Assembly: GCA_963836185.1 (NCBI GenBank)
Contig: CAWIIQ010000001.1
Coordinates: 2,144,001 to 2,208,000 of the forward strand
Reading direction: 5' to 3'
Origin: Candidatus Krumholzibacteriia bacterium
Lineage (GTDB): Bacteria > Krumholzibacteriota > Krumholzibacteriia > Krumholzibacteriales > Krumholzibacteriaceae
Length of the DNA: 64,000 nt
The position numbers were made by a program, and so were the translations under genes. Shown in pieces: positions 858-18,869 of the stretch (position 1 is the stretch's first letter; each line of letters opens with the position of its first letter). The notes beneath the pieces were generated by a model. It had not been told where the DNA came from, ran no database searches, and was given only the letters and a program-made list of their open reading frames with translations.

Positions 858-861
858 TTCT

Positions 862-3331
862 CTATACCTTTCTTCCCGCGAAGACTGCCGGGATCACCGC
901 TATCGCGACGGCAAATACGAACGATACGACCGACAGGATCAAGGATCTTTTTATGACCGGGGACCTGTACTCGAATACTATCTCGTGATCCCCCGCCTCC
1001 AGCGGCAGGGCTCGCAGACAGTAGTTCGCTGTCAGGATCTCCCTCTCTTCCTCCACCGACCGTGGCTGTCCAGTCGGGATAGTCTATCTCGCTGAGCACC
1101 ATTATGCACGGTTTCTCGATATGTGCCCTTACAGTCATAGAATTCAGTCCGTAAGAGACGATCTCCGCCCCGCTTCCCTCGGCCGACTCTACGGCGACCT
1201 GAGGTTCCTTTTCCAGCAGGGTCACGGAGGCGGGATCGAAATCCTGGCTGCTTATCGCCGCCAGGGCATCTCCATGATCTACAACACGGAAGCTGCCCGT
1301 CATGTATACCCTCGGCAGGACATACGGATTCTCATAGATATAGCTCTGCTCCCTCTCGAATACGAGGCGGAATGGTGAATCTTCGCGGAATACGGGGAAC
1401 AGGGAATGGAAATATTTCGCGTTGAGCATGTTGAGGACCGGCAGGGGCATGCCGCCTCTGTTGAAGACGCCGAACATGGCGTCCATCACGTCCTGGTAGT
1501 TTTTCATCTTGGCGGCATGATAACCGCCCATCGAGAAGATACCGGACATCATGTAGCTGTTGTCGCTGAAGGGGAAGACGTTGTGGCTCCAGTTTCCAGG
1601 CCTGGAGGCGGGAACGGGGAATACCCTGAAATATCCTTCCCTTCCTGAAAGGTACCTTGCCGTTTCGGTCGGGGTCGCCAGCCCCTCTTTCATCGAGTGT
1701 GGATTGATCAGCCTGTAGTTCGACGATCTCCAGGTTTTCTCCGGCCTGACGATAGAATGGTCGATCGTCATCAGGTCGGCGACAGCGATCAGGGCGATCG
1801 CCGCGATCACCATTCCGGGCCTGATCCGCCGGCTCGCGGCAAGGAAGACCGCCCCCACCGTGAGCAGGAGAAAGAACCATGTCCGGACAAGGTCACTCGA
1901 AAATCTGCCGGCGGCAAAAGCCGTCCATTGACCCTTGACTCTCGCCGCTACGGCCGGATCCGCCTCGATGGCCGAGCGTATTGAGCCTCCGGCGACCAGT
2001 ACCAGAACCAGAACGGCCGCGCATACTATCACTGCCCATTTCAGCCTGCCTGCCTCAAGTATTGCGGGAAGAGAGCCCTCTTCAGATCTGCGCATGAGTT
2101 CTTCGATCCCGAGAGCGGCGAGGATGACAAGTACAAGCTGCTGGACGATCAGGATCATCACGGGTACGCGGAACTTGTCGAACCACGGCAGGAACCTGAA
2201 CAACGGATCGTAAAGAATGGTGAAATGCTTTCCAAAACTTATCAGTGTGGCAAGAACGGCAGCGGTAAGGAGGAACCACTTAACCCTTCCCTTTACAAAG
2301 ACGGCTCCGATGAACGCGAACAGCGCCGTCACCTGCCCGAGATAGTTGGGATAATCGGTGAAGGGCATGGAGCCCCAGTAGGTCGCCTTACCAAATCCGG
2401 AGGACCACGGCAGGAAGAAGGTCATCATCTCCTTCGGGGAGAGGGACCATCCTGTCGCGAAGTCGTAGTCGAGTCCGCCGCCGCTTCCGCCTCGTATCGA
2501 CCACTCGGCATAGTCGCGCACCGGAAAGACGAGCACGGCGGCTATTCCCACGGCCAGGGCCAGCGATGCGGCGAGCAGCCCGGTCCCGGCGAGCGCTGCC
2601 CTGCCCTTGCCCTCCCTGAAGAGTCCTGCTGCCTCGAATATGAACATCAGCCCGATAAGCAGGAAGGTGTAGTACGAGATCTGCAGATGGCCCCTCAGCA
2701 TCTGCATCCCGAGAACGATGGCAAGGAGCGCGGCGGAGCTGATCCTGTTCTTTCCATCGAGTGTGCCCCGCGTAAACAGCAGGGCCAGAGGCATCCACGC
2801 GATCGCTATCGCCTTCGAACCGTGGCCGTTAGCGCCGGCAGCCAGGTAGTTAGGCATGAGCATGAAGATCACTCCGGCGAGCAGCGAGATTGATGGACGT
2901 ATCCCGAACGACCTGGCCAGCATATACATGCCGGCGCCGGCAAGGAGATAGTGAAGAAGAAGCCACGTCATGGCGGGAAATCCGGCATATTTGTAGAGCA
3001 TGCTCGTTATGAACGATACGGGATATGCGTACGGGGTATAGGCCAGGCTGGAAAAGCTCGGCATCCCGCAGAAGAGATAGGGATTCCAGAGCGGGTATGT
3101 CCCGGATTCGAGGCTCGTCCTGCCGACCGTCCTGAAGCTCATCGGAGCCTTCGTATCGGGAGCGATGAAGACGTTGTCGAGAAAGATCAGTTCGGGCACA
3201 AGGATAGCCAGCACGGCCACAAGGATCACGGCTGCCGCGATACCCCTTTTCCACCCCTTCATGGAATCGAAGCTGCCGACGGGATCGAACGCTTCACGGA
3301 CCGGCCCGGCCGGCTTGCTCTTTCCTGCCAA
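862..3331 (-). CDS. YfhO-family GT-C membrane glycosyltransferase, frameshifted near 1055
   Basis: YPLWNPYLFCGMP, many TM helices, PRVY, YPDWTATV; the family-typical C-terminus (ILTANYCLRALPLEAGDHEIVFEY+TM) is in the alternative frame 862..1056. Confidence 0.85.
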
Positions 3332-3372
3332 TAAACTCTCCTCTATCGATACAGGGGCATGCTACCTTACTG

Positions 3373-3401
3373 ATTGTATCACTTTCACATCGGACGGTAA
3401 A
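3373..3401 (-). promoter_or_regulatory. Putative sigma70 promoter for the yfhO-like gene
   Basis: TTTACC-N17-TACAAT with extended -10 TGn in the intergenic gap. Confidence 0.5.
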
Positions 3402-3404
3402 TGA

Positions 3405-4286
3405 TCAAAATCTCATACCTCTTACAGCCCCCCTCACCGCCGCGGAGAGCAGTTTCCACCTCCCCGTCAGGAAAAGCCCCAGCATCAACCCGATAAACCC
3501 AGCCGCATGGACCGGAAAGAGAAGCGCCCGCCACCAGAAAGGCCTGTGCCTGCTGAAAAGCTTCGATGTGCTCGCTATCCTGTTCTCGAGCTTGAAGGGC
3601 GTCATCCCGCCTCCACTGCTCGAACTGACCTTGTGCCAGACTTTTGCCGCTGGGACATATCGCATCGACCAGCCCTCCCGGGCCGCCCGCAGGCAGAGAT
3701 CGACGTCCTCACAGTATATCCTGTACGACGGGTCGAGGGTCCCTGCCTGTTCAAAGACCTCCCGCCTCGCCATCAGGGCGCATCCGGTGACCCATCCGGT
3801 CGTACCCGGCTTATCGGCACAGCGGCCGTCCATCCTGCGGAGACCGTAGTGAAATGGTACCCCGGTGAGCCTGTTGAATCCGCCCCCCCCGTACCAGATC
3901 CTTTCAGGGTCGTCGTAGTAGAATATCTTCGGTCCCGCTATCCCCACAGCGGGGTCGTCGAACGCGGCCAGCATCTCAGCGGCGAAGGAAGGGTCTACTT
4001 CAGTATCGTTGTTGAGCAGAAGTATGAACTCCGCTCCCTTTTTCAGGACCTCCTCTATACCCACGTTGTTCCCTGCCGCGAAAAGGAGGTTCTCTCCGTT
4101 CTCGATCAGTTCCACACCGGGGAAATCTTTCCTTACTATCTCCTGTGAGGAATCTGTCGAGCCGTTGTCTACGACTGTTATCTCGAGCGGAGGATCAGTG
4201 ACGCGCATCAGGGAATCGAGGCAGGGGCCCAGGACTTCCCTCCCGTTCCAGTTGAGGATTATGACGAAGACTCTGCGCCTGTCCAT
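3405..4286 (-). CDS. Glycosyltransferase family 2 (WbbL/rhamnosyltransferase-like)
   Basis: IILNWNG, VVDNGSTD, LLNNDT, TGCALM, YCEDVDLC; SD GGAG before ATG 4286. Confidence 0.85.
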   Translation of the reverse strand: MDRRRVFVIILNWNGREVLGPCLDSLMRVTDPPLEITVVDNGSTDSSQEIVRKDFPGVELIENGENLLFAAGNNVGIEEVLKKGAEFILLLNNDTEVDPSFAAEMLAAFDDPAVGIAGPKIFYYDDPERIWYGGGGFNRLTGVPFHYGLRRMDGRCADKPGTTGWVTGCALMARREVFEQAGTLDPSYRIYCEDVDLCLRAAREGWSMRYVPAAKVWHKVSSSSGGGMTPFKLENRIASTSKLFSRHRPFWWRALLFPVHAAGFIGLMLGLFLTGRWKLLSAAVRGAVRGMRF

Positions 4287-4287
4287 C

Positions 4288-5457
4288 TCAATCACTCCCG
4301 GAAATGTCATAGTAAAGTTCCTCGATGGTTCCGGCCAGCGAAGACCAGGAAAAACGTTTCTTTTCCTCTGCGAAAGCAGGGGCCATCCTGTCCCCCCAGC
4401 CTTCCTCGAAGAACCTGGCTACCGCTTCCGCCATCGCGGCGGGATCGGCGGGCGGCACTATAAACCCGGTCTTGCCTTCCGAGACGACTTCGGGAAGGCC
4501 TCCTACACGGGTCGCTATCATCGGACGGTCGAACGCTACGGCGACCTGGGCTATAGCGCTCTGCGTAGCCGATATGTAGGGAAGCATAACCAGGTCGGCG
4601 GCGTTGAAGTAGGCCGCGACCTCCTCATTCGCAACATACCTGTCTACGAATCCGATGCTGCCGGAGACGCCGAGTCTTTCCACCTGTTCGTGGTAAGGCG
4701 CGCTGTCCTCGTAGAACTCGCCGACGACGAGCAGCCTCGCTCCCGTTCTTTCGACGATCGCGGGCATCGCCTCGATCAGGTGGCTGAGCCCCTTGTACGG
4801 GCGGATCAGACCGAAGAAGAGGAGGAGCGGGCCATCTCCCTCTCCTATCGCCGAGCGGGCTTCGGTCCTTGTCATGTCGCCGCTCCTGAAAAAATCGAAT
4901 ACCGGAAGTGGATGCGATGTCACCTTCGCCTTCTTCCTGATCCTGAGCAGATTGCGCCTGTCTTCCTGTGATTGGACGACGTATGCGTGCGGCGGCAGAA
5001 AGGCCATCGAGGTGAGAGCCCTGTCTATCGGTGAAGTCTCGTGCGGAACCACATTATGGCAGATGAACACTATCTTCGTGGAGCTCAGCATCCTCAGTAT
5101 CGAACATATCTTTACCAGTGCCGGCGCGAAGTATGGATGCCACCACTGCACGATCGTCAGGTCCGGTTTCCACCGGGCGATCCGGAAACCGGTCCTTATC
5201 CACGTAAACGGATTGATCGAGTCTATCGATCTGTCCGACTCGACCTGGTGCGTCGAACCGCTCTCGTCATACTGTGTCTTTCCGGGGAAAAGGAAATCGG
5301 GATAGAGCCTGGAGTAATTTATGACGCTTACATCGTGACTGAGCGCCAGCTCCCGGGCAAGACTTGTATTGTAATGGGATATCCCTCCCCGGAAGGGCCA
5401 TGCCGGCCCGACGAGGCAGATCCTGAGTCTCCGGACTGATTCTTCGCTACTGATCAT
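4288..5457 (-). CDS. Glycosyltransferase family 4
   Basis: GPAWPFRGGISHY, FFGLIRPYKG, PYISATQS, TRVGGLPE. Confidence 0.9.
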   Translation of the reverse strand: MISSEESVRRLRICLVGPAWPFRGGISHYNTSLARELALSHDVSVINYSRLYPDFLFPGKTQYDESGSTHQVESDRSIDSINPFTWIRTGFRIARWKPDLTIVQWWHPYFAPALVKICSILRMLSSTKIVFICHNVVPHETSPIDRALTSMAFLPPHAYVVQSQEDRRNLLRIRKKAKVTSHPLPVFDFFRSGDMTRTEARSAIGEGDGPLLLFFGLIRPYKGLSHLIEAMPAIVERTGARLLVVGEFYEDSAPYHEQVERLGVSGSIGFVDRYVANEEVAAYFNAADLVMLPYISATQSAIAQVAVAFDRPMIATRVGGLPEVVSEGKTGFIVPPADPAAMAEAVARFFEEGWGDRMAPAFAEEKKRFSWSSLAGTIEELYYDISGSD

Positions 5458-6391
5458 CTATCTGGTACTCGCGAAAAGAAAAGGTCCTCTCCAGAGTGGA
5501 TGAGTAGAGCTCGGCCAGCAGCCCGATAGACCCGATCTGTATCGAGATCACGATCATGATCAGGCCGAGGACCATCAACGGCCTTACATGAAGGCCCATC
5601 CCCATGATCCATTGCACCAGGAAATAAAGGCTGATCAGGCCGCCGGCGGTGAAGAAGGCAAACGCGATCCTGCCGAACAGATGGAGCGGCGTCGTGGACC
5701 TGCGTGTGATGAACATCACCGTCATCAGGTCGAACATACCGTTGAGAAGCCTCTTTGCCCCGTACTTGCTCCTGCCGTACTGGCGTTCGAAATGAGAGAC
5801 CTTCATCTCCCCGATCCTGAAACCTTCCCATCCGGCCAGCACCGGTATGAACCTGTGGAGCTCGCCGTATATATGGATCCTTTTGACTACATCCCTGCGA
5901 TATACCTTGAGGCCGCAGTTGAAATCGTGGAGCTTTATCCCGCTCGCGACAGACGTGGTGAAGTTGAAAAGTTTCGAGGGCCAGGTCTTTGTGATCGGGT
6001 CCTTCCTGTCCCGTTTCCAGCCAGAGATCAAGTCGTACCCCTCGTCGAGCTTAGCGATCATCGCCGGGATCTCGTCGGGATTGTCCTGGAGATCCGCATC
6101 GATGGTAACGACGATCTCTCCCTTCGACGCCTTGAATCCCTCATCGAGCGCGGGTGATTTGCCGTAATTCCTCGAGAAGCTTATGATCTTGACCCGCCTG
6201 TCGCCGCTTCTGAGCTTCCTTATGATATCGAGCGATGAATCGGTGGAGCCGTCATCTACGAAAAGAAGCTCGTGAGCGGAAGCCGTCCTCTCCAGCATCG
6301 AGGTAAGCCGGGTGTAAAGCTCTTCGAGGCTCCTCTCCTCGTTGTAGGTTGGGATTATTACTGTCACACTGTATTTTTTAGCGCTTTCCAA
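5447..6391 (-). CDS. GT2 polyprenyl-phosphate glycosyltransferase (ArnC/GtrB-like) with two C-terminal TM helices
   Basis: IPTYNEE, VDDGSTD, SRNYGKS, DADLQDNP, HDFNCGLK, GELHRFIP. Confidence 0.88.
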   Translation of the reverse strand: MESAKKYSVTVIIPTYNEERSLEELYTRLTSMLERTASAHELLFVDDGSTDSSLDIIRKLRSGDRRVKIISFSRNYGKSPALDEGFKASKGEIVVTIDADLQDNPDEIPAMIAKLDEGYDLISGWKRDRKDPITKTWPSKLFNFTTSVASGIKLHDFNCGLKVYRRDVVKRIHIYGELHRFIPVLAGWEGFRIGEMKVSHFERQYGRSKYGAKRLLNGMFDLMTVMFITRRSTTPLHLFGRIAFAFFTAGGLISLYFLVQWIMGMGLHVRPLMVLGLIMIVISIQIGSIGLLAELYSSTLERTFSFREYQIDDQ

Positions 6392-6413
6392 GATCTACCT
6401 CCGGAATTCCGCT

Positions 6414-7355
6414 TCAGGAATGGTTCCTGTACCATTCGATCTCGCGCACGAGTCCCTCCTCCAGGCCGATCGTCGGCGCGAATCCGAGCTCCGCCGCCGC
6501 TTTCGAGGTATCGGCCCAGGTATCGGCGACATCTCCTCTTGCCTTTTCCATGAAACGGACCGGCGGATCGCCGCCCGTCTCCCGGCTGATTATCTCGATC
6601 ACATCGAGGACCGAGCTCCTGCTTCCCCCGCCGATATTGAATATCTTTTCTTCTCCCCCGTAACTGGAGGCGCGCATATTCGCCTCGACCGCGTCGAGCA
6701 CGAATGTGAAATCCCTCGTCTGTTTTCCATCGCCGTACACTTCTATCTCGCCATCGCCGAGGGCTGCGGTTATGAACCTGCTGAACGCCATGTCGGGCCT
6801 CTGCCTCGGCCCGTATACGGTAAAATACCTCAGCGCCACATATCGCACCCCGAAGTTTACACGGTAGAGCTCACACAGATGCTCGGCCGACAGCTTGGTC
6901 GCGCCGTAAGGCGAGACGGGGCTCGTGACATGATCTTCCCGCATCGGGAGGTCCCTGGTGTCCCCGTATACCGAACTGGAGCTCGAGTATATGATGGGGA
7001 TCCCCGTACCTTTCATCGACTCGAGGAGTCTCTGCGTCGCGAGTATGTTCGAATCGATGTAGTGCGAGAACTCCTCGCCCCAGCTCCTTCTCACGCCGGC
7101 CTGTGCGGCCAGGTGAAAGACGCACGAAGCGCCGTCGAGATGAGAAGCGAGGCTGCAGCTGTTGAGGTCCTCCTCGACAAGAGTGAATTCTTTCGATCCG
7201 GACAGGCCGGAGATGTTTTCCCTCTTTCTGCGGGGATCGTAGTAATCCGTAAAACTGTCGATACCGGTGACCGACCATCCATCGGAGACAAGTCTCTCGC
7301 AGAGATGCGATCCTATGAATCCCGCCGCTCCCGTTACCAGGGCCTTTTGACTCAA
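6414..7355 (-). CDS. NAD-dependent nucleotide-sugar epimerase/dehydratase (UDP-glucuronate/UDP-glucose 4-epimerase-like)
   Basis: TGAAGFIGSH, HLAAQAGVR, SSSSVYG, YGATK, RYFTVYGPRQRPDMA. Confidence 0.9.
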   Translation of the reverse strand: MSQKALVTGAAGFIGSHLCERLVSDGWSVTGIDSFTDYYDPRRKRENISGLSGSKEFTLVEEDLNSCSLASHLDGASCVFHLAAQAGVRRSWGEEFSHYIDSNILATQRLLESMKGTGIPIIYSSSSSVYGDTRDLPMREDHVTSPVSPYGATKLSAEHLCELYRVNFGVRYVALRYFTVYGPRQRPDMAFSRFITAALGDGEIEVYGDGKQTRDFTFVLDAVEANMRASSYGGEEKIFNIGGGSRSSVLDVIEIISRETGGDPPVRFMEKARGDVADTWADTSKAAAELGFAPTIGLEEGLVREIEWYRNHS

Positions 7356-9856
7356 TTTGCCTCCCCCGACGAATCCGGTGCCGTCGATCCGCCATTCCCG
7401 AATTCCGTATCAAGTACATGGTCGATGTTGTCGTACAACTGCCTGAATTCCTTGTCGCCCGGATGACCGTCGAGCCAGCTGCGGACGAATTTCTTCGCCA
7501 GTTCTCTCCTGCCGAAGGTCGCCGCTATCCTGAAACCGTGCCCGAACAGGTCCCTGTGATCAGGAGCGGCTGCGATTGCCCTTTCGAGGACCTCGAGTGC
7601 TCTCTCCGAGTCTCCTCTATCCTCATAGATACTCGCCAGGCCCATCCAGAAATCGCCGTTCGAGGGTTCCCGCTCGACCTCCCTCATATAGTGTCCGACA
7701 GCCTTGTCGATCTGTCCGGCACGGCTGTAGTAGAGGCCGAGGTATTTTCTCGGAAAATCGAAATCGGGATTGAGGCTGTACGACAGCTCGGCCCATCTCA
7801 CCGCCTCGACATAATCTTTCCTCATCGAGGCCTTCTGTGCGAGCTGGAAAGCGGCGACCGCGAAATTGATGAACATCCCGCGGGTATCGGCCGCCCTGTA
7901 GATCGAATCGTCGACATGCCACTCGCTGTCGAGCACCCCGCGAAACTCGTAGATATCCTCAAAATTCCGTTTCATCTGGAACTCGTTCATCTGGTACTTC
8001 TTTTTTATCGATACAAACTTGCGGACCATCCCCTGCATCTCGAGGTACTCGCTGTACGGTTCCCATATTTCAGGCGGGACCGTCACGGCTACATATATCG
8101 GCCGCTTCCAGCTGTTCTCCTGAATGATGTGCTGCATGACCAGGTCCCGTCTCCAGGCTACTTTTCCATTCTTGAGTACGACGGAGCGCAGCCTCTCTAT
8201 CTCTATATCGCTGTAAGATATCGGCACGGGAGGCTTGCGGTCGCGAAGCTGCCTGATATACCAGCTCGTATTGAGCAGCGACAGGTTGGCGATATTGACG
8301 TCGGGCCTGAACCCCTCGACCATCTGGATATACCACAGCGGGTATGTGTCGTTGTCCCCGTTGGTGAATATGACAGCGTCCGGTTCGAGCCCGGCCAGGA
8401 TATTGTAGGCGTAATCCCTCGGAACATAGTCCTGTGAACGGTCGTGGCTGAACCACTGGTACCTCGCCGGCAGGATCGAGACGATCACCAGAACGGCCGC
8501 CACCGCGGCTGCCCACTTGAGCGCGTCCTTCGACTTCGCCCTGACCTCTTCTATCACGAGCATGACCAGCGATGTCGCCCCTATCCCGATGAATATCGAG
8601 AAGTAGTAGAATGCGGCGCCGTAAAAATAGTCACGCTCGCGGACCTCGCTGTCGCTGAAGTTGAGGAATATGATCAGCCCGGCGGAGTTGAGCAGCAGAA
8701 CGGTGAAGTTCAGGACCCACGTCTTCTTCTCTCTCAGAAAGTTCGCCACGATACCCCATATCCCCAGCGTCAGGGGAACGATCACGCTCGCCACTCCGAC
8801 GTTGAAGAAACCGAGGCGCACATCGCCGAAGAGCCTGAACTGATCTGTAAAGTAGTTCCAGAAGTGCTGTATCTGGAAGAGCGGGGATGCCTTTCTCGCG
8901 AATATGTTGATCGGCGGGTACTGCTCCCTGCGAAGGTGAGCGTACATCGCGTCCCAGTTCTGAGGGTCGACCATGTCGATCGCGGGGTCGTGAAAAGACC
9001 GTATGAACATGAAGAGATGAACGGAGATGCCGAGGATAAAGAGAAGCGCCGCGTACAGCGCGAACCTGCCCTTCGACATCGTCGTCCACACCAGAAGCAC
9101 CCCGAATATCGCGAACCCCACCAGGGTCAGGGTCGTATTACGGTGAAGCGTCATGTCTGCGAGGATCACCGCCATCCCGAACGTGATGACAAGAAGCTCG
9201 AAATTGCTGAACGACTTCCTGTTTACCATCAGGATCATCAGGAAGATCCCGCCGTAGACCAGTATCGTCCCCAGATGAAAACCTATCCCCAGAGAAAGCA
9301 GGTAGATGATCAGAAGGATCAGCCCGCTTGAAGTCCCATCCTCGGTAGTTCCGCTGCCGTCATCGGGATGCTTACTCAGCCACCTGAGTGCGAGAAGGGT
9401 GCAGAGCCCCATGACAAACGCACTGAGAGCATAGACCTCCGCCTCGATCGCATCCGTCCAGTAAGTGTCGCTGAATGTCAGGAAAAAAGCGCCGACGATG
9501 CCGCCGGCGTGGGTGGCGATCTTCGCCGCCGCAGTCTTCGCCGCACCGAACATCTGTCGGGCGACCCCGACGATGATCAGGTAGACCATCGTGACCCCGA
9601 GCGCCGCCGTAAATGCCGAGAGAAGATTGACCCTCTGCGCCACGGACAGGGCCACGGGCAGCATCGCGAAGACCCGCCCCACGAGGACGTACATCGGCGT
9701 GCCCGGGGAATGGGGTATCCCGAGGATATATGAGACGGCGATGAACTCGCCGGCGTCCCAGAAAGAGACGGTGGCCGCCATCGTCATGATGTAGACGACA
9801 AGGCTCGTTAGGAATATCACTGCCGCCAGAAGGCGGTGTACGGCGTTATCTGACAT
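7352..9856 (-). CDS. DUF2723/TMEM260-like GT-C protein with C-terminal TPRs, paralog A
   Basis: SFWDAGEF, PHSPGTPMY, EAEVYAL, REQYP, VRERDYF, FTNGDNDTYPLWY, NLSLLNTSWY; multiple TM helices; TPR-like helical C-terminus. Confidence 0.88.
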   Translation of the reverse strand: MSDNAVHRLLAAVIFLTSLVVYIMTMAATVSFWDAGEFIAVSYILGIPHSPGTPMYVLVGRVFAMLPVALSVAQRVNLLSAFTAALGVTMVYLIIVGVARQMFGAAKTAAAKIATHAGGIVGAFFLTFSDTYWTDAIEAEVYALSAFVMGLCTLLALRWLSKHPDDGSGTTEDGTSSGLILLIIYLLSLGIGFHLGTILVYGGIFLMILMVNRKSFSNFELLVITFGMAVILADMTLHRNTTLTLVGFAIFGVLLVWTTMSKGRFALYAALLFILGISVHLFMFIRSFHDPAIDMVDPQNWDAMYAHLRREQYPPINIFARKASPLFQIQHFWNYFTDQFRLFGDVRLGFFNVGVASVIVPLTLGIWGIVANFLREKKTWVLNFTVLLLNSAGLIIFLNFSDSEVRERDYFYGAAFYYFSIFIGIGATSLVMLVIEEVRAKSKDALKWAAAVAAVLVIVSILPARYQWFSHDRSQDYVPRDYAYNILAGLEPDAVIFTNGDNDTYPLWYIQMVEGFRPDVNIANLSLLNTSWYIRQLRDRKPPVPISYSDIEIERLRSVVLKNGKVAWRRDLVMQHIIQENSWKRPIYVAVTVPPEIWEPYSEYLEMQGMVRKFVSIKKKYQMNEFQMKRNFEDIYEFRGVLDSEWHVDDSIYRAADTRGMFINFAVAAFQLAQKASMRKDYVEAVRWAELSYSLNPDFDFPRKYLGLYYSRAGQIDKAVGHYMREVEREPSNGDFWMGLASIYEDRGDSERALEVLERAIAAAPDHRDLFGHGFRIAATFGRRELAKKFVRSWLDGHPGDKEFRQLYDNIDHVLDTEFGNGGSTAPDSSGEAN
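8208..9826. repeat. Direct repeat copy 1 (coding region of paralog A)
   Basis: 8283-9318 identical to 10863-11898; 8208-8252 identical to 10788-10832; 9375-9826 near-identical to 11967-12418 (few mismatches). Confidence 0.95.
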
Positions 9857-9906
9857 CGCATGATCCAGTCGCAACAGGCTTATACTCTCTCTAACCTGAT
9901 AAATCT

Positions 9907-9935
9907 ATTATAATTCCACGGAGTTTGGAAGTCAT
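9907..9935 (-). promoter_or_regulatory. Putative sigma70 promoter for DUF2723 paralog A
   Basis: ATGACT-N17-TATAAT in the AT-rich spacer between the paralogs. Confidence 0.55.
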
Positions 9936-12448
9936 TTCTGCCCGGCAGGACCGGTAGTATCAGGCGGTTCTCCAATACCGAACTCTTTGTAAAGGACCTG
10001 ATCGAAATTATTGAGCAACTGGCGGAATTCCTTGTCTCCCGGATGTTTCGCGAGCCAGGATTCGACAAATGACTTCGCATCCTCGCTCCTGCCCATACTG
10101 GCCGATATATAGAAGCCGGTGGCGTAGATCTCCCTGTGGTCCGTAACGGCCTGGGTGCCCCTGCGAAGGACCTCCAGCGACTTTTCAGGATCATCGTTTT
10201 CCTCGTAGATCTTTGCCAGCGCCATCCATAGCTCTCCCCTGTGCGGCTCGGCACTGAGCAGCCGCTCGTAATGCTCGATACCCCGTTCGACCTGGCCCGT
10301 CCTGGCGTAATAAAGGCCGAGCACCCTGTTGGGGTATTCAAAATCCGGCTTGAGCCGGGATGTGAGCTCGGTCCATCTCAGGGCCTCTTCATAGTCCTTT
10401 CGCTGCGCGCTGAGCCGCGACATCTCCATCGATGCGACAGCGAAGTTCTGGAACATGCCCTGCGTATACTGTGACTTGTAGGTCCTGTCATCCCTCGTGC
10501 CGTCCGGATTCAGAATACCCCTGAACTCGAAGATCTCTTCGAAGTTGCGGCGAAGCATGAACTCGTTGGTCTGATATTTCCTTTTATTCGTGACGAGTTT
10601 GCGGACCATCCCCTGCATCTCGAGATATTCGGCGTAAGGCTGCCACGCATCACGAGGAACGGTGACGGCGAAGTAGACGGGCCGCTTCCAGCCCGCTTCC
10701 TGAATGATATGCTGGATCATCAGATCCTTCTTCCAGGCGACGCCGCCTCCCTTCAACGCCATTGGACGAAGCCTTCTTATCTCATCGTCGCTGTAAGATA
10801 TCGGCACGGGAGGCTTGCGGTCGCGAAGCTGCATCACGTACCAGTCAGTGTTAAGCAGCTGAAGGTTGGCGATATTGACGTCGGGCCTGAACCCCTCGAC
10901 CATCTGGATATACCACAGCGGGTATGTGTCGTTGTCCCCGTTGGTGAATATGACAGCGTCCGGTTCGAGCCCGGCCAGGATATTGTAGGCGTAATCCCTC
11001 GGAACATAGTCCTGTGAACGGTCGTGGCTGAACCACTGGTACCTCGCCGGCAGGATCGAGACGATCACCAGAACGGCCGCCACCGCGGCTGCCCACTTGA
11101 GCGCGTCCTTCGACTTCGCCCTGACCTCTTCTATCACGAGCATGACCAGCGATGTCGCCCCTATCCCGATGAATATCGAGAAGTAGTAGAATGCGGCGCC
11201 GTAAAAATAGTCACGCTCGCGGACCTCGCTGTCGCTGAAGTTGAGGAATATGATCAGCCCGGCGGAGTTGAGCAGCAGAACGGTGAAGTTCAGGACCCAC
11301 GTCTTCTTCTCTCTCAGAAAGTTCGCCACGATACCCCATATCCCCAGCGTCAGGGGAACGATCACGCTCGCCACTCCGACGTTGAAGAAACCGAGGCGCA
11401 CATCGCCGAAGAGCCTGAACTGATCTGTAAAGTAGTTCCAGAAGTGCTGTATCTGGAAGAGCGGGGATGCCTTTCTCGCGAATATGTTGATCGGCGGGTA
11501 CTGCTCCCTGCGAAGGTGAGCGTACATCGCGTCCCAGTTCTGAGGGTCGACCATGTCGATCGCGGGGTCGTGAAAAGACCGTATGAACATGAAGAGATGA
11601 ACGGAGATGCCGAGGATAAAGAGAAGCGCCGCGTACAGCGCGAACCTGCCCTTCGACATCGTCGTCCACACCAGAAGCACCCCGAATATCGCGAACCCCA
11701 CCAGGGTCAGGGTCGTATTACGGTGAAGCGTCATGTCTGCGAGGATCACCGCCATCCCGAACGTGATGACAAGAAGCTCGAAATTGCTGAACGACTTCCT
11801 GTTTACCATCAGGATCATCAGGAAGATCCCGCCGTAGACCAGTATCGTCCCCAGATGAAAACCTATCCCCAGAGAAAGCAGGTAGATGATCAGAAGGACG
11901 AAGCCGCGCGAACGTTCCGGCTGAGCGGCATCGATGCCTCCGACAGAACTCTCATCGGAATGTGACCTCAGCCATCTGAGTGCGAGAAGGGTGCAGAGCC
12001 CCATGACAAACGCACTGAGAGCATAGACCTCCGCCTCGATCGCATCCGTCCAGTAAGTGTCGCTGAATGTCAGGAAAAAAGCGCCGACGATGCCGCCGGC
12101 GTGGGTGGCGATCTTCGCCGCCGCAGTCTTCGCCGCACCGAACATCAGGCGGGCGACTTCGACGATGATCAGGTAGACCATCGTGACTCCGAGCGCCGCC
12201 GTAAATGCCGAGAGAAGATTGACCCTCTGCGCCACGGACAGGGCCACGGGCAGCATCGCGAAGACCCGCCCCACGAGGACGTACATCGGCGTGCCCGGGG
12301 AATGGGGTATCCCGAGGATATATGAGACGGCGATGAACTCGCCGGCGTCCCAGAAAGAGACGGTGGCCGCCATCGTCATGATGTAGACGACAAGGCTCGT
12401 TAGGAATATCACTGCCGCTGAAAGATTCTTGATCGCCCTGTCGGACAT
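9932..12448 (-). CDS. DUF2723/TMEM260-like GT-C protein with C-terminal TPRs, paralog B
   Basis: Same motifs as paralog A; N-terminal ~530 aa almost identical, TPR region divergent. Confidence 0.88.
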   Translation of the reverse strand: MSDRAIKNLSAAVIFLTSLVVYIMTMAATVSFWDAGEFIAVSYILGIPHSPGTPMYVLVGRVFAMLPVALSVAQRVNLLSAFTAALGVTMVYLIIVEVARLMFGAAKTAAAKIATHAGGIVGAFFLTFSDTYWTDAIEAEVYALSAFVMGLCTLLALRWLRSHSDESSVGGIDAAQPERSRGFVLLIIYLLSLGIGFHLGTILVYGGIFLMILMVNRKSFSNFELLVITFGMAVILADMTLHRNTTLTLVGFAIFGVLLVWTTMSKGRFALYAALLFILGISVHLFMFIRSFHDPAIDMVDPQNWDAMYAHLRREQYPPINIFARKASPLFQIQHFWNYFTDQFRLFGDVRLGFFNVGVASVIVPLTLGIWGIVANFLREKKTWVLNFTVLLLNSAGLIIFLNFSDSEVRERDYFYGAAFYYFSIFIGIGATSLVMLVIEEVRAKSKDALKWAAAVAAVLVIVSILPARYQWFSHDRSQDYVPRDYAYNILAGLEPDAVIFTNGDNDTYPLWYIQMVEGFRPDVNIANLQLLNTDWYVMQLRDRKPPVPISYSDDEIRRLRPMALKGGGVAWKKDLMIQHIIQEAGWKRPVYFAVTVPRDAWQPYAEYLEMQGMVRKLVTNKRKYQTNEFMLRRNFEEIFEFRGILNPDGTRDDRTYKSQYTQGMFQNFAVASMEMSRLSAQRKDYEEALRWTELTSRLKPDFEYPNRVLGLYYARTGQVERGIEHYERLLSAEPHRGELWMALAKIYEENDDPEKSLEVLRRGTQAVTDHREIYATGFYISASMGRSEDAKSFVESWLAKHPGDKEFRQLLNNFDQVLYKEFGIGEPPDTTGPAGQK
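10788..12418. repeat. Direct repeat copy 2 (coding region of paralog B)
   Basis: Matches copy 1 at offset 2580, changing to 2592 after a 12-nt longer divergent loop. Confidence 0.95.
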
Positions 12449-12487
12449 TCTCTCTACCTTTCTATTCTATTCGTCACGTATTCGTAT

Positions 12488-13480
12488 TTATACTCCGGAA
12501 TCGGTATCTTTATCCATCGAAATCGCCCCTGTGATCTGGCGCCTCAGGAAAATGACTCCGCCGATCAGGCTGACCCCCACCATGACGACGTAAGTGATGA
12601 ACTCCATCAGGAAAGCTTCTTCCTCGCTGAATCCTATCCTCGTAAAGAGCAGAACGCCCGCGCCCTCTCTCAGGCCGAGGCCGTTGATCGAGATCGGGAG
12701 CATCATTATCAGGCCCAGAAGGGGAATGAAAACGAAGAAATGCAGCATCTCACGAGTCCCGGGATGTATCCCGAGCGCCATCGCTACAGCGATATGGGTC
12801 GTTATCCTCAATACCTGTATTGTCAACGTGAGGGCTATCACCCTCCCGAGAAGTGCAGGAAAGGAACGAAACGAGCCGAGATGGCTGAGGACCAATTCCA
12901 GCCTCTCCCCTATCCCCCACAGCCTGATGCGCGAAAGCATCCTTCTCACCGGAGTCGAGATCCTCCTGCTCAATGCCAGCGCCAGGACCGGAGCGACACA
13001 ACCGGCGAAGATGAGCGCGTAGATGCCGATATCCATCGAGCCGCCTGACAGGAGAAGGTAGAGTGAGGCGGCCAGCGCGAGGATGCAGAGGCCGGTTATC
13101 CCGATGACCCGGTCGAGGAGTGTTATCGCGAAGACCTTGTGAGGATCGTATCCGGTGCGGACCACGTCATAGATCTTGTATGCGTCGCCGCCGACATTGG
13201 TCGGCAGAAGGTTATTGAAAAAGAGCCCCGTGAAATAGAGGCTGAAACTTCTCGAGACAGGCATCCGCACACCGCCGACGGACAGGAGAAGGTGCCACTG
13301 CAGCGCGCCCAGCAGATTGCTTGTGAGGAATATCGCCACAGCGGCGGCTATCCACACGGTCTCGATGTTCCCGAGCTGTTCGAGCAGCCTGCCCGGAGAT
13401 ATCCGGTAGAGCAGGATCGCGATCAACCCGACACTGACCGAGATCTTCAGCAGCTGCAGCCCGGCGCGCTTCTTATCCAC
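12488..13480 (-). CDS. Lysylphosphatidylglycerol synthase TM-region (UPF0104) flippase-like membrane protein
   Basis: LKISVSVGLI, FFNNLLPTNVGGD, LLDRVIG, LPISINGLGLREG; GTG start at 13480. Confidence 0.85.
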   Translation of the reverse strand: MDKKRAGLQLLKISVSVGLIAILLYRISPGRLLEQLGNIETVWIAAAVAIFLTSNLLGALQWHLLLSVGGVRMPVSRSFSLYFTGLFFNNLLPTNVGGDAYKIYDVVRTGYDPHKVFAITLLDRVIGITGLCILALAASLYLLLSGGSMDIGIYALIFAGCVAPVLALALSRRISTPVRRMLSRIRLWGIGERLELVLSHLGSFRSFPALLGRVIALTLTIQVLRITTHIAVAMALGIHPGTREMLHFFVFIPLLGLIMMLPISINGLGLREGAGVLLFTRIGFSEEEAFLMEFITYVVMVGVSLIGGVIFLRRQITGAISMDKDTDSGV

Positions 13481-14600
13481 CCGAGCTCCCCTCTTCCCCC
13501 CCGATGACGGAAAGCAGGAACTGCTCCGTCTCGCGGGCACATCTCTCCCAGGTAAGCTCGCCCGTCCTCTCGATCGCCGCCGCGCTCATTCTGCTCCAGA
13601 GGTCATTGTCGAGAAGCAGCCTGACGGCATTTTCGCCGAAGGCAACGGCATCGCCGTAAGGAACGAGAAAACCGGTGACCCCGTCGACGACAGAATCCTT
13701 CAGACCGGGCCGATCGCTCGCGACTACGGGGACGCCGCATGCGTTCGCCTCGACCACTGTCAGGCCCCAGCCCTCCTTGGGACTGGGATTGAAGAGCAGG
13801 TGGGACCTGCCCAGCATCTCGACCAGCTCGGTTCCGCTCAGGTAGCCCGTGAATTCGATCGCATCTCCCAGGCCGAGCCCGGCGGCGTACTTTTCAAGCT
13901 CCGGGCGGTACGGCCCGTCGCCCACTATGACAAGTCTTGCGTCGGGAACGCTCTTAAGGACCGTCTCCATCGCCTTCATGGCTACCTCGACGCTCTTGTA
14001 TTTTCTGAGCCGGCCGAGGTGGACGATCGTAGGACGCTCGTATCTCTCGAGACCGAGATCGCGGTACCTGTCATGGTCGAGCCCGCAAAGTATGACCCCT
14101 ATACGGCCGGCGGGGATCCCCCGGGCGACGAGGTCGTCACGGGTGCTCGGGCTTATGACCATGAACCTGTTCTTCTTGAAGACGTGCGGTATCAGTTTCT
14201 CCGCCGTCACGACGTAGCTCCCAGTCACCCAGTCGGCCTCGCGGAATACCGTGGTGCCGAACAGATGCGGGATCACAGGGACGACGGGAACCTTCGTATA
14301 GAGAGGCATGAAGAATGGAAGCTTGTTTATGTCCTCGATCACTACATCGTAACTTTCCTTCTTCATATGCCGCTTCGCGAAAAGAGGGAGCGTGAAGTTC
14401 GCGTCGAACCAGTGTCCATGGCGCAGGATCCTGACTCCGTCTATCTCATCGGTCGCGGCGCCTCCTGGAAATCCCGAAGACAGCTGGGTAGTCTCGTGTC
14501 CCCAGCGGGCAAGATGGGTGAGTATCTCGTGAAGATGGACCTCGGCCCCTCCTGCCTCAGGATGGTGCATATCTCTCCAGTTAAGAGCGAGGATCTTCAT
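13473..14600 (-). CDS. Glycosyltransferase family 4
   Basis: NWRDMHHPEAGGAEVH, LGRLRKYK, PSPKEGWGLTVVEANACG. Confidence 0.9.
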   Translation of the reverse strand: MKILALNWRDMHHPEAGGAEVHLHEILTHLARWGHETTQLSSGFPGGAATDEIDGVRILRHGHWFDANFTLPLFAKRHMKKESYDVVIEDINKLPFFMPLYTKVPVVPVIPHLFGTTVFREADWVTGSYVVTAEKLIPHVFKKNRFMVISPSTRDDLVARGIPAGRIGVILCGLDHDRYRDLGLERYERPTIVHLGRLRKYKSVEVAMKAMETVLKSVPDARLVIVGDGPYRPELEKYAAGLGLGDAIEFTGYLSGTELVEMLGRSHLLFNPSPKEGWGLTVVEANACGVPVVASDRPGLKDSVVDGVTGFLVPYGDAVAFGENAVRLLLDNDLWSRMSAAAIERTGELTWERCARETEQFLLSVIGGEEGSSGG

Positions 14601-14610
14601 CGGCCTTTCC

Positions 14611-15369
14611 TCAGTCCTTTCTCGCTATCGTTCCTATGACGACTGTCGTATAGAGCACCGGCCTCGCCGAGAGGAGCGCGGAGCGCAGACCGGCAAAAAT
14701 CTTTCTTGTCGATGTGAAGACTCGCGGGTACATCGGGAGCTTCGCGCCTGTTCCTTTCCTCAATATCCTGTACCAGATCGGCGGATTGAGCCATTCGCCG
14801 TATGTCCCGACAACCGTGAAAGAATGCCCACGGAGCATCTTCTCGAGTTCGCGAGGGGAGAATTCCGTCTCCCAGCCGGCGAACCACTTTCCCGCCGCTA
14901 TCATCGCGTGCTTAAGCGCAGTGTAGTAATGCCACCGCTGCGGGACATCTACGAGTATATGCCCGCCCTTTTTAAGGACTCTGTGATGCTCCGCCAGCAT
15001 ATCACCGGGATTGCGAAAATGCTCCAGGAGCCCCTGGTGGAAGACGAGGTCGAATGTGCCGTCAGCGAAAGGAAGCGAGAAGGCATCGCCGCAGCACAGG
15101 TCGACAGCGGCACCCTCGGGAATCTGGCTCCTGACCATCCCGAGACTCGGCATGCTGTAGTCCAGCGATACGACCGACGCTCCCTGCGAGGCCATGAAGA
15201 TCCCGTCCCTGCCCGTGCCGGCGCCGACCTCGAGGACCCTGAGCCCCTCGAGGGGCCTGACCTCGATGTAGTGCCTGCTCACGCGGCCCTCGTTATCATA
15301 GATCTCAAGCGCGTCGCCCGACACATTCCAGAAATCGTCCCAGTGTTTTCTCTCGGATACCTTCATCAT
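14611..15369 (-). CDS. Class I SAM-dependent methyltransferase
   Basis: VLEVGAGTG, GDAFSLPFADGTFDLVF, LLEH, RVLKKGG. Confidence 0.88.
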   Translation of the reverse strand: MMKVSERKHWDDFWNVSGDALEIYDNEGRVSRHYIEVRPLEGLRVLEVGAGTGRDGIFMASQGASVVSLDYSMPSLGMVRSQIPEGAAVDLCCGDAFSLPFADGTFDLVFHQGLLEHFRNPGDMLAEHHRVLKKGGHILVDVPQRWHYYTALKHAMIAAGKWFAGWETEFSPRELEKMLRGHSFTVVGTYGEWLNPPIWYRILRKGTGAKLPMYPRVFTSTRKIFAGLRSALLSARPVLYTTVVIGTIARKD

Positions 15370-15373
15370 ATTA

Positions 15374-16105
15374 TCAGCGGCCTCTGAACAGGCGCTCTGC
15401 GAACCTCACAGGCAGCCCGGCATCTCTGATATCCTTCGCTTCGGCCTCGATATCGTACTCGCGCCGGTGAAGGGTGACGGTCTTATCATCCAGGTCGAAT
15501 ATCAGGAAGGACGCGCGTTTATCGCCGTCCCTCGGCTGCCCGACACTGCCAGGATTAATGATATAGCGGCCTGAAGGGTCCAGGGCGAAGGTTTCGCCCG
15601 GCTTGAGACTCTTCGGGCCGCCAATATAAGTATACACCAAAGGGACATGCGTGTGCCCTACAAAACAGACCGAAAAATCAAACTTCTGGAACGCTTTCTC
15701 GGCGATCAGAAGGTCGGTCATATAGGTAAATTCCTCTGGATAATGGGGAGATCCGTGGGCGGCGAGGTACTCGTCGCACTCGACGGTCAGCTCGAACCTT
15801 TCTGAGAAGGACTCGTTATACTTCCCCGCCAGCCTGTTGACCGTCCACTCCAGGGCCGTGAAGGCGTCCGTGTTGAAGGTCTTCCTCTCGCTCAGGTCTC
15901 GGACAGCCTTGTCATGGTTCCCCATGACCAGGCGCCCTCCTGGAACAGCGAGCAGCCTGTCGAGGCACTCGCCCGGGTGGGCGCCGTACCCGACGGCGTC
16001 CCCGAGAAAGAGGAACCTGCACGGGCAATGCTCCGTGTAAGCTGCCAGAACGGCGTCGAGAGCCCTCAGGTTACCGTGTACGTCGGAGCAGACGAAGAGC
16101 TTCAC
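15374..16105 (-). CDS. Metallophosphoesterase (calcineurin-like)
   Basis: SDVHGN, LGDAVGYG, GNHD, HGSP, GHTH, NPGSVGQPRDGD; GTG start overlapping nusB stop. Confidence 0.88.
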   Translation of the reverse strand: MKLFVCSDVHGNLRALDAVLAAYTEHCPCRFLFLGDAVGYGAHPGECLDRLLAVPGGRLVMGNHDKAVRDLSERKTFNTDAFTALEWTVNRLAGKYNESFSERFELTVECDEYLAAHGSPHYPEEFTYMTDLLIAEKAFQKFDFSVCFVGHTHVPLVYTYIGGPKSLKPGETFALDPSGRYIINPGSVGQPRDGDKRASFLIFDLDDKTVTLHRREYDIEAEAKDIRDAGLPVRFAERLFRGR

Positions 16106-16512
16106 CCGCCGCGCACCTCCTTGGACAGCTTGTCGAGGATCCCGTTTACGAACGACCCGGCCTTTTCCGAGCTGAACTTGTGAGCTATCTCTATCGCCTC
16201 GTCGATTATCACCCCCGTGGGTACTTCGGGGCACTCGAGCAGCTCGTAGAGGGCTATCTCCATGATGATCCTGTCGACGACCGCCACCCGCTTCAGCTCC
16301 CAGTTCTCGAGGTTGGAAGAGATCATGCCGTCGAGCCGTTCGCGAGAATCCGAGACCCCGCTCACGAGCCTGCCGGCATACTCGGACGCTTCCTCTGACG
16401 GCCCCCTGCGCCTGACCGAATCGGCCAGGGCGTCCTCCCATTCCGCCTCGCCGATCTCGGCGGCGTACAGGGTCTGGAGGGCCATCTCTCTTGCCTTTCT
16501 GCGTCTGCTCAT
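16102..16512 (-). CDS. nusB: Transcription antitermination factor NusB
   Basis: RRKAREMALQ, DRIIM, IDEAIEIAHKFS, FVNGILD; follows ribH. Confidence 0.95.
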   Translation of the reverse strand: MSRRRKAREMALQTLYAAEIGEAEWEDALADSVRRRGPSEEASEYAGRLVSGVSDSRERLDGMISSNLENWELKRVAVVDRIIMEIALYELLECPEVPTGVIIDEAIEIAHKFSSEKAGSFVNGILDKLSKEVRGG

Positions 16513-16979
16513 CAGCCTCCGATCTCTTTCCAGAGACTGACCATCTCGATGGCGGACATTGCCGCCTGCCAGCCCTTGTTTCCGGCCTTGCTTCCGGCGC
16601 GCTCAAGCGCCTGTTCCTGTGTATCGGACGTAATTATACCGAAGGCGACAGGCTTGCCGGTACCGACCCCGATCGCCGATATGTCCTTGACCACCTGGCT
16701 GGCCAGAATATCGAAGTGAGGCGTGTCGCCCCTGATCAGTGCCCCTACGCAGACGACAGCGTCGACACCCGTCGCGGCTGCCTTGCTGACCGCCTGCGGG
16801 ATCTCGAAAGAACCCGGCACCCGATACAGCGTGATATCTCCGTCTGACACGCCGTGGCGCACGAGACAGTCGAGAGCGCCCCCGATCAGAGATTCGGTCA
16901 CCAGCTCATTGAACCTGCCCGCCACAACGGCGAACTTCATGCCTGTACCTATGAGTTTCCCTGCCTTCTCAACAGCCAT
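16512..16979 (-). CDS. ribH: 6,7-dimethyl-8-ribityllumazine synthase
   Basis: [35 protein letters not shown]. Confidence 0.95.
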
Positions 16980-18255
16980 CCTTCTCTCCTTTCGCTTTCG
17001 ATCCGCAATTACAGCCGCAGCAGCCTTCATCCTTCCGGACCTCTTCGCGCAGCTCGCCGAAGAGATGTCCGAGCTTGTCCCTCTTTGTCGACATATACCT
17101 TACGTTCTTCAGGTTGGGCGTGATCTCGATCGGCATCCTCTCGACGACCTCGAGTCCGTATGCCTTCAGACCGATGATCTTTCTCGGGTTGTTGGTCAGT
17201 AGCCTGATCTTGTGCAGGCCGATATCGACGAGTATCTGGGCCCCTATCCCGTAGTCGCGCAGGTCGGCGGGGAACCCGAGTTCCTCGTTCGCCTCTACCG
17301 TATCCCTTCCCTTGTCCTGAAGCTCGTATGCCCTGACCTTGTTTACGAGCCCGATCCCGCGTCCCTCCTGCTGGATGTAGAGGAAGACTCCGGAACCCTC
17401 CTCGCATATCTGTTCGAGCGCGCTGGAGAGCTGATCGCCGCAGTCGCAGCGCTGTGATCCGAAGACGTCGCCTGTAAGGCACTGGGAATGGACGCGCACC
17501 AGGGCGCTTTCATCCTTCCACGGCTCACCCTTGATCAGCGCGACGCTCTCCGAGCCGTCGACCGTTCCCTCGTAGGCGATCAGGCGGAAATTGCCGTATT
17601 TCGTAGGAAGTTCGGCCTCAGCTTCGCGCCTGACGAGCTTTTCCTTCCTGCGCCTGTACTCGATCAGGTCGAATACCGTGATCATCTTCAGGCCCCACTG
17701 CTTCGCGAAGGTCGTGAGCTCCGGCCCCCTGGCCATCGTGCCGTCCTCGGCGAGGATCTCGCAGAGCAGGCCTGCCGGTTCGAGCCCGGCCATCCTTGAA
17801 AGGTCTACCGCCGCCTCGGTATGCCCCGCTCTGCGAAGGACCCCTCCGCGCGCGGCGCGTAGCGGAAAGATATGGCCCGGGCGGGCGAGGTCATCCGGCT
17901 CCGTCCGTTCATCAATGAGCACACGGACAGTCGTCGCCCTGTCGAAGGCCGATATCCCCGTCGTCGTGCCGTGCACGGCATCGACGGAGATGGTAAACGG
18001 CGTACTCATCTTTGCCGTGTTCTCCTGCACCATCATCCCGAGCTGAAGCCGATCGAGCCTTTCCCCCGTCAGGGCTACGCATATCAGGCCCCTTGCGTGC
18101 CTGGCGATGAAATTGACCGCCTCGGCATCGACCTTTTCCGCCGCCATGATTATGTCGCCCTCGTTCTCGCGTGTCTCGTCATCGACCACGACGATCATCT
18201 TTCCCGCCTTGATATCCGCGAGGGCCTCTTCTACAGTACTGAAATCCTTGACCAC
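16969..18255 (-). CDS. ribBA: Bifunctional DHBP synthase / GTP cyclohydrolase II
   Basis: [54 protein letters not shown]; true start GTG 18255. Confidence 0.95.
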
Positions 18256-18281
18256 TTCACACCTCTCATGATGCCCCTCAG

Positions 18282-18869
18282 TCAGGCCTTTCCCGGCCCG
18301 GTGAACCTCTCCACGTATTTGGCCAGAATATCCACTTCTATGTTGACCCTGCTGCCCGGGCTGACCTTCCCGAGGGTAGTCGCTTCCCATGTCTGCGGTA
18401 TGATGAATACCTTGAACTTTCCGCCCGACGGGCCGGGCCCGATCGTCAGGCTTACGCCGTCGACCGCTACTGATCCCTTCGAGACGATGTACCTGCCGAG
18501 TTCCCTGCCGACATCGATCTCGATGCCGAGCGGGTCGCGGATCACGCGGGTAACCCTTCCGACGCCGTCGACATGGCCGTTGACGATATGTCCGCCCAGT
18601 CTTCCGCCAGCCTCGAGAGCCCGTTCGAGATTGACCGGCGAGCCAGCCCTGAGCTGCCCGAGTGTCGTGACGCGCAGCGTCTCGGTAAGGACGTCGCACG
18701 AGAAATCGCCGGACTTCAGCTGCGCCACTGTCTGACACGCGCCGTTTACCGATACGCTGTCACCGACAGACAGCCCCTCCAGGGGTGAAGCGATCGTGAG
18801 ACGGCCGCCTCGCGAGGACCTGCGCATCGACAACACCCTGCCGGTCGTCTCAATCAGCCCGGTGAACAT
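18282..18869 (-). CDS. ribE: Riboflavin synthase (alpha chain)
   Basis: [43 protein letters not shown]. Confidence 0.95.

Follow-up and report, generated by a model that had tools for sequence, protein, structure and literature searches.

Probable repeated gene conversion between two tandem TMEM260-like glycosyltransferase genes that keep diverged, probably acceptor-binding domains

How can two adjacent genes of one bacterial genome share more than a thousand identical nucleotides and then agree in only about half of their remaining residues? The question is raised by genes A and B, a tandem pair encoding TMEM260-like GT-C glycosyltransferases in a 64,000-nt stretch (referred to as the window) of contig CAWIIQ010000001.1, from a Candidatus Krumholzibacteriia bacterium (assembly GCA_963836185.1, here G000; 3.5 Mb in 6 contigs). 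An earlier note, made from the letters alone, had described the pair as a mosaic of DNA-identical catalytic halves and divergent TPR halves. Based on the data presented here, we consider it quite probable that repeated intrachromosomal conversion keeps the membrane and catalytic part identical, while the periplasmic Rossmann-like and TPR parts persist as two old types, probably with different acceptors.

Both proteins match PF11028 (TMEM260-like, formerly DUF2723) with 146.4 bits for A and 146.5 bits for B over a cut-off of 24.2, both carry TPR Pfam matches near residues 680-810, and they are the only two PF11028 genes in the genome. The genes lie head to tail. The open frame of A runs out to TTG 9874, which had been taken as its start, but alignment with orthologs, whose proteins begin with MSDNAV..., favours ATG 9856, most likely the true start. 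Sliding comparison of A and B showed that the first ~10 codons are type-specific, that nucleotide identity is 96-100% from there to codon 529, with the exception of one loop, and that it drops to 52-71% past codon 530. At the protein level 503 of 523 residues are identical over residues 1-530 and 153 of 277 (55%) over residues 560-838, in agreement with the earlier estimate by eye of about half for the C-terminal region. The long block reported in the earlier note is exact and maximal, with a mismatch immediately at each end, the 45-nt block is likewise exact, and the "handful of substitutions" between the 5' tracts amounts to six sites (Table 1). The loop that interrupts these blocks is wholly different, as had been claimed, with the peptides as quoted there and DNA that is unalike. 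The "TPR half" is indeed diverged, but it comprises the rest of the Rossmann-like domain (~aa 530-660) as well as the TPR domain (~661-825).

Table 1. Coordinates of the two genes, their mapped parts and the conserved neighbours in the window.
Feature	Position	Strand	Description
Gene B, upstream copy	9932..12448	-	838 aa; TMEM260-like GT-C glycosyltransferase, Q530 type; open reading frame, PF11028, AlphaFold2 model
Gene A, downstream copy	7352..9856	-	834 aa; TMEM260-like GT-C glycosyltransferase, S530 type; open reading frame, PF11028
Identical 1036-nt tract, copy A	8283..9318	-	codons ~186-529; transmembrane helices 5-11 and first two Rossmann-like strands, including D505
Identical 1036-nt tract, copy B	10863..11898	-	sequence comparison
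Near-identical 5' tract, copy A	9375..9826	-	6/452 mismatches; codons ~11-160, including D34 and H49
Near-identical 5' tract, copy B	11967..12418	-	sequence comparison
Loop, copy A	9319..9374	-	56 nt, between transmembrane helices 4 and 5; unlike copy B
Loop, copy B	11899..11966	-	68 nt
Codon 530, copy A (Ser)	8279..8281	-	first type-specific residue at 3' end of identical tract
Codon 530, copy B (Gln)	10859..10861	-	aligns with human E466
45-nt identical block, copy A	8208..8252	-	just past boundary; partner 10788-10832
Diverged C-part, copy A	7352..8207	-	remaining Rossmann-like palm and TPR fingers
Diverged C-part, copy B	9932..10787	-	remaining Rossmann-like palm and TPR fingers
Flippase-like membrane protein	12488..13540	-	LPG_synthase_TM / TIGR00374; directly upstream of B; conserved neighbour
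NAD-dependent sugar epimerase/dehydratase	6414..7355	-	directly downstream of A
GT2 resembling polyprenyl-phosphate sugar synthases (ArnC, PgfS)	5447..6391	-	NF007986 match; conserved neighbour

The length of the identical tract is far outside what the distribution of variable sites would give by chance. When these sites were shuffled 1000 times, the longest identical run averaged 37 nt and reached at most 78 nt, versus 1036 nt observed, and seven unconverted paralog pairs of related genomes have longest runs of 14-23 nt.

In order to place the pair in its family, 41 related genomes were compared, the source genome included. A homolog is present in 40 of them; two copies on one contig, complete or with one cut by the contig end, were found in G001, G005, G006, G007, G008, G016, G017, G020, G022 and G024, and the sister family (f3) gave a single match in 8 of 8 genomes. 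Synonymous divergence (dS) and dN/dS were estimated for each gene part by the Nei-Gojobori method. Between A and B, dS is 0.027 over codons 12-157, 0 over codons 187-528 (342 codons) and 2.25 over codons 560-835. The paralogs of the sister species G001 give 0.21, 0.21 and 1.66 for the same three parts, those of G004 give 0.26 for the middle part and 1.45 for the C-part, and those of G006 give 0 over 46 codons and 1.07 for the C-part. Orthologs of different species are separated by a dS of 0.64-0.98 in all three parts, the values for the core being 0.64-0.92. As the core dS within a genome is far below the ortholog dS, homogenisation of the core took place in each species on its own, later than their split.

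The domain-wise phylogenies that the earlier note had proposed point the same way, since the core tree (residues 20-528 minus the loop, 42 rows) and the C-part tree (residues 560-838, 44 rows) conflict. In the C-part tree the genes of the genus form an upstream-type clade (support 95/99) and a downstream-type clade (99), each with one gene per species, whereas in the core tree the genes pair by genome (100 for the G000 pair, 97 for the G004 pair). Approximately unbiased (AU) tests on the C-part rejected a clade of the two G000 genes (p 1.8e-99) and likewise one of the two G001 genes (p 7.6e-5), and on the core they rejected the type clades (p 1.5e-68 and 4.9e-82), so that p is at most 7.6e-5 throughout. 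The earlier proposal of a homogenised GT-C module within an older duplication is thus upheld by a core dS of 0-0.03, versus ~0.8 for orthologs and more than 2 for the C-part, by the conflict of the trees and by the mosaics of the sister species.

Indeed, G001, G004 and G006 each display a mosaic of their own with tract limits unlike those of G000, the one in G001 being on a single contig. The longest identical runs are 391 and 228 nt in G001 and 231 and 164 nt in G004. In G006, two contigs share their first 140-141 nt and, after 4 consecutive differing bases (codons 529-530), a further 90 nt, so that the difference at residue 530 persists as an isolated stretch of 4 nt with identity on both sides. 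De Bruijn assemblers leave a shared contig start of that length where a collapsed repeat ends. Contigs of other short-read assemblies of the genus likewise break within these genes, and a conversion locus accounts for this behaviour of the short-read metagenome-assembled genomes (MAGs).

Taken together, these data are most likely explained by gene conversion between the copies that has repeatedly pasted one core over the other. At least two conversion events of different age can be inferred in G000 from the contrast between 0 of 1036 and 6 of 452 mismatches, the 5' tract being the older, as all six would fall in the shorter tract by chance with a probability of ~(452/1488)^6, or ~0.0008. Conversion would be of the RecA type between direct repeats 2580 nt apart, with tracts that would stop at heterology, namely at the predicted cytoplasmic loop with its 12-nt length difference and at the diverged C-part from codon 530 onwards. 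The loop would be cytoplasmic if helices are counted from a cytoplasmic N-terminus; in the structural model described below it lies between membrane helices 4 and 5, and its residues 162-176 are of low confidence. In most relatives the loop is ~40 residues long and charge-rich; this genus has it ~20 residues shorter in its upstream-type genes. Short loops with a common HPDDGS start are also present in the downstream genes of G000 and G005.

Which parts of the enzyme lie on either side of the boundary was examined with an AlphaFold2 model of gene B, built from an alignment of 35 relatives (pLDDT 84.9, pTM 0.82). The model has membrane helices up to ~475, an alpha/beta domain at ~482-660 with strands at 499-502, 525-528, 591-594, 609-611 and 615-618 and flanking helices, and paired helices at 662-823. 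Its top Foldseek match is ArnT (5ezm/5f15, E 4.5e-6), followed by PglB, STT3, AglB and Pmt4, all with probability 1.00, and lipid-linked donor chemistry is implied for A and B by this GT-C fold. By sequence, chain 9rql_A of human TMEM260 is the only solved structure matched for residues 1-660 (E 1.8e-20). The human entries 9RQL-9RQN are absent among the Foldseek matches of the model, and the residue mapping comes from a pairwise HMMER sequence alignment. In this alignment D34, H49 and D505, which are invariant among the 35 sequences and all fall inside the homogenised part, correspond to human D52, H67 and D441. The alignment leaves human R264/Y267 and R355 uncovered; the invariant R314-x-x-Y317 may be the counterpart of R264/Y267.

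In human TMEM260, according to a structural preprint (10.64898/2026.03.17.711096), the lipid-linked mannose sits among eleven membrane helices, D52 and H67 are placed on the sugar and D441 beside the acceptor threonine, and a Rossmann-like "palm" and TPR "fingers" build a groove for an extended acceptor peptide, in which E466 contacts the residue just before the glycosite. Given this layout, the diverged C-part would amount to most of the palm plus the fingers, and most of the human acceptor-peptide groove corresponds to it.

Both types of the C-part are under purifying selection, with an ortholog dN/dS of ~0.14-0.16 (0.126/0.915 and 0.161/0.978). Of 297 C-part columns, 112 hold one residue across both types, and another 26 are fixed within each type but for different residues, 7 of them in the remainder of the palm and 19 in the TPR domain. 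The first of the 26 is residue 530, exactly where the 1036-nt tract ends, and it aligns with human E466 in a gapless stretch between the RPD and WY motifs. Both copies reach this site in 15 genomes, and in all 15 an S in one copy is matched by a different residue in the other. The latter is Q in this genus and in G008, M in 8 rows and T in G007 and G022, and it belongs to the upstream copy whenever the pair is tandem. Genomes where a single copy was found contribute rows with S, the one exception being G008, in which a contig end truncates the second copy. Residue 530 is therefore a candidate acceptor-specificity contact, as judged from the alignments, and it is singled out as a likely specificity determinant that is open to a swap test.

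Two side observations concern the history of the types. In the C-part tree the two copies of genus g1 are sisters, and so are those of g2 (loci of G007, G022, G016, G017, G020 and G024). The S versus non-S distinction at residue 530 and the gene order are common to the family and suggest a single old pair, contrary to the pairing of g1 and g2 in the tree. Either recurrent duplication with convergence at residue 530 or an earlier whole-gene homogenisation that spared this residue would reconcile the two.

The distribution of conserved and diverged parts makes it plausible that A and B are two enzymes with the same donor and different targets. The main alternative is that conversion is real but the targets are the same, the C-parts having drifted under relaxed constraint and the copies being redundant, differently regulated or working as a pair. 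We regard this as unlikely, yet it is a serious contender: the difference in acceptors is a prediction, and yeast Pmt1-Pmt2 work as a heterodimer, according to the title of a reference cited in PMC10214176. The upstream-type copy of G005 (L006:1-1047) has an in-frame TAG at ~codon 686, before the TPR domain, which could make it a pseudogene or a truncated form or could be a sequencing error, and this copy is maybe dispensable in that genome. Relaxed drift sits poorly with the purifying selection on both C-part types and the 26 fixed differences, and shared targets sit poorly with an acceptor-contact position that differs in 15 of 15 two-copy genomes and with human domains that form the acceptor groove.

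A bolder form of the preferred explanation, that of a constant core and a variable reader, holds that conversion maintains one donor and catalytic module while selection protects two acceptor readers down to residue 530. We put it forward tentatively, as a possibility that falls short of being probable. If true, these bacteria would feed one lipid-linked sugar into two separate, dedicated channels of protein (or envelope) glycosylation, and the conserved cluster around it would be the first tractable bacterial model of a TMEM260 pathway.

Several points weigh against conversion with two acceptor types. The trees are "quick" LG+G4 trees, which limits the evolutionary tests, and the groups used in the AU tests on the core were picked from the C-part tree after inspection of that tree. 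The direction of conversion is left undecided by ortholog comparison: over codons 201-240 the shared sequence of G000 is 85-87% identical to upstream-type orthologs and 77-80% to three downstream-type genes, but a fourth downstream-type gene (G005) reaches 90%, and other codon ranges are ambiguous. The correspondence of residue 530 to E466 stems from the pairwise HMMER alignment and not from superposed structures. No human-type sequon or relaxed form of it was found in the 6 TIG/IPT loci checked (of 7 family matches in G000), and IPT/TIG domains were dropped as candidate acceptors. The neighbouring GT2 that would supply the donor matches the ArnC family NF007986 over its full length (E 4.4e-55, 186.9 bits), below the equivalog cut-off of 529. 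Among the sequencing runs, X1 was the sole holder of the locus (0.49 of words), X2-X4 being relatives, and all were searched as Logan contigs at 3-5x depth; the X1 contigs cover neither the B loop nor either 3' boundary, and they carry a variant, 11264 G>A (equivalent to 8684), inside the "identical" block. The variant could be a strain difference, a copy-specific difference masked in the assembly, or an error. Given the variant and the incomplete read support, exact identity is maybe slightly overstated by consensus polishing.

These read data bear on a second alternative, an artefact of assembly or polishing in which core differences were erased by multi-mapping reads or one copy is an assembly duplication. 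Its attraction is that the exact 1036-nt identity comes from the consensus of a 6-contig MAG and that X1 has the variant just described, but we judge it improbable, with a slim chance at most. Both copies have unique flanks, first codons, loops and C-parts, and the X1 contigs agree with segments peculiar to A and to B, with 0-1 mismatches, and bridge the A loop and the B-A spacer. Independent assemblies of the sister species show the same kind of mosaic, whether the long runs of G001 and G004 or the shared contig start of G006, and polishing might remove a few single-nucleotide differences but not the dS of ~0.8 expected without conversion. The identical block is more fully covered than the unique C-parts in depth bins, which fits two copies, weakly. 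No 2580-nt joint was seen in the X1 contigs, where gaps at 3-5x prove nothing.

A recent partial duplication or domain swap, in which a foreign or older C-terminal module was attached to a young duplicate of the core, would give the same mosaic of identical and diverged parts. It is nonetheless highly improbable, for the two types of C-part, arranged in the same tandem order and each with its own first 10 codons, also occur in the sister species, at an ortholog dS of ~0.8, so that the two-gene arrangement predates the species splits, whereas the core identity is younger than those splits and has limits that differ by species; moreover, the two G000 tracts differ in age. Purifying selection on the catalytic core alone, with no recombination, has practically no chance of being correct. 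In its favour, no part of the family is more conserved than the core, and the invariant columns of the 35-relative alignment cluster there, but it is refuted by a within-genome dS of 0 in the same codons where orthologs have a dS of ~0.8, and the cores of unconverted pairs from other genera agree at only 57-80%.

Returning to conversion with two acceptor types, the genes around the pair suggest how the two enzymes would work. On the minus strand the order is methyltransferase, GT4, flippase-like protein, B, A, epimerase/dehydratase, GT2, GT4, GT2 and an 825-aa polytopic protein. The GT2 next to the epimerase also matches PgfS over its full length (151.3 bits, below the cut-off of 500), and it likely makes a lipid-linked donor, to judge from its family resemblance. 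This ArnC-like GT2 would load the sugar onto polyprenyl phosphate, the flippase-like protein would bring the lipid-linked sugar to the periplasmic side, and both GT-C enzymes would take the same polyprenyl-phosphate sugar in identical donor pockets. Their differing palm and finger grooves would then present different acceptors, with residue 530 (S versus Q/M/T) as a specificity contact. The flippase-like protein exceeds the cut-off of the TIGR00374 "flippase-like domain" (59.8 versus 43.2 bits); to our knowledge, flipping of lipid-linked sugars by this family has not been established.

We surveyed 79 loci from reference genomes, 68 of which have a GT-C match over at least half of the query. 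The flippase-like protein, the epimerase and the ArnC-like GT2 occur all together in 20 of the 68, from Krumholzibacteriota, Latescibacterota, Eisenbacteria and Gemmatimonadota records. A partial set was found in 15, many of them cut by contig ends, and none of the set in 33, mostly Balneolaceae, Rhodothermales and other distant homologs. Taken singly, an ArnC-like GT2 is present in 23 of the 68 loci and a flippase-like gene lies directly upstream of the GT-C gene in 30. The gene pair thus sits in a cluster that is conserved in several phyla and that also encodes a likely donor synthase and a flippase-like protein.

A longer order was also observed, running ribBA, metallophosphoesterase, methyltransferase, GT4, flippase-like protein, GT-C (one or two), epimerase, ArnC-like GT2 and GT4 (window 141-18738); it is conserved from ribBA to GT4 in Krumholzibacteriota, Latescibacterota/Latescibacteria, Eisenbacteria and Gemmatimonadota/Gemmatimonadales (loci L053-L126). 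For the 825-aa polytopic protein (854-3331, minus strand), Pfam and NCBIfam gave no match, even with the threshold relaxed to E 1. In the ESM Atlas it falls among YfhO-family clusters (score 0.98, 30/30 matches). It accompanies the cluster in several phyla and is a possible third GT-C-type enzyme acting on the same lipid-linked sugar. In a scan of 4000-17000, promoter-like sites were not above shuffles, one of them being in the B-A spacer, and the terminator-like matches within the gene pair all lie inside coding sequence.

Among known systems, the closest in family is human TMEM260, a protein O-mannosyltransferase (9RQL/9RQM/9RQN), which shares PF11028, the conserved catalytic Asp, His and palm Asp, and the combination of a GT-C membrane core with a Rossmann-like and a TPR domain. 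Unlike it, A and B are bacterial inner-membrane proteins, are ~130 residues longer and form a converted tandem pair, and the epimerase and ArnC-like GT2 of their cluster do not point to mannose in particular. The available part of one report mentions the bacterial side only as "distant homologs in bacteria" (PMC10214176), and no characterised bacterial member of the TMEM260 family was found in the literature searched. Bacterial relatives of TMEM260 are widespread, and the human enzyme, whose acceptor groove was described only very recently, is encoded by a disease gene.

The cluster also resembles the three-component periplasmic systems, which consist of a polyprenyl-phosphate sugar GT2, a flippase and a GT-C enzyme (ArnC/ArnT, GtrB/GtrA/Gtr-type, CsbB/GtcA/YfhO). 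Here, too, an ArnC/PgfS-like GT2, a flippase-like protein and a GT-C enzyme are adjacent and conserved, and ArnT is the top Foldseek match. It differs in that the flippase-like protein is of the LPG_synthase_TM/TIGR00374 type and not GtrA or ArnEF, that the GT-C enzyme is of the TMEM260 family and carries the Rossmann-like and TPR domains, which hold the peptide in the human enzyme, and that the cluster adds two GT4s, a methyltransferase and the YfhO-like protein.

The conversion process itself is known, and the locus is a textbook-quality example and not a new process. Its value is that it naturally sets what has to stay the same in the protein apart from what has to stay different. For tandem paralogs, partial concerted evolution is described, in the available portions of the respective reports, for mammalian TLR1/TLR6 (PMC2077338), methanogen mtrA (PMC4632066) and RF1/RF2 (PMC4530459). 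In those cases, as in this one, part of the gene is homogenised while the rest has diverged, and paralogs are closer within a genome than orthologs between species. Compared with what those portions describe, the present pair stands apart in that a whole GT-C membrane and catalytic module is converted, with its limit at the start of the acceptor-binding module, and in that the conversion arose again, independently, in sister species of this uncultured phylum.

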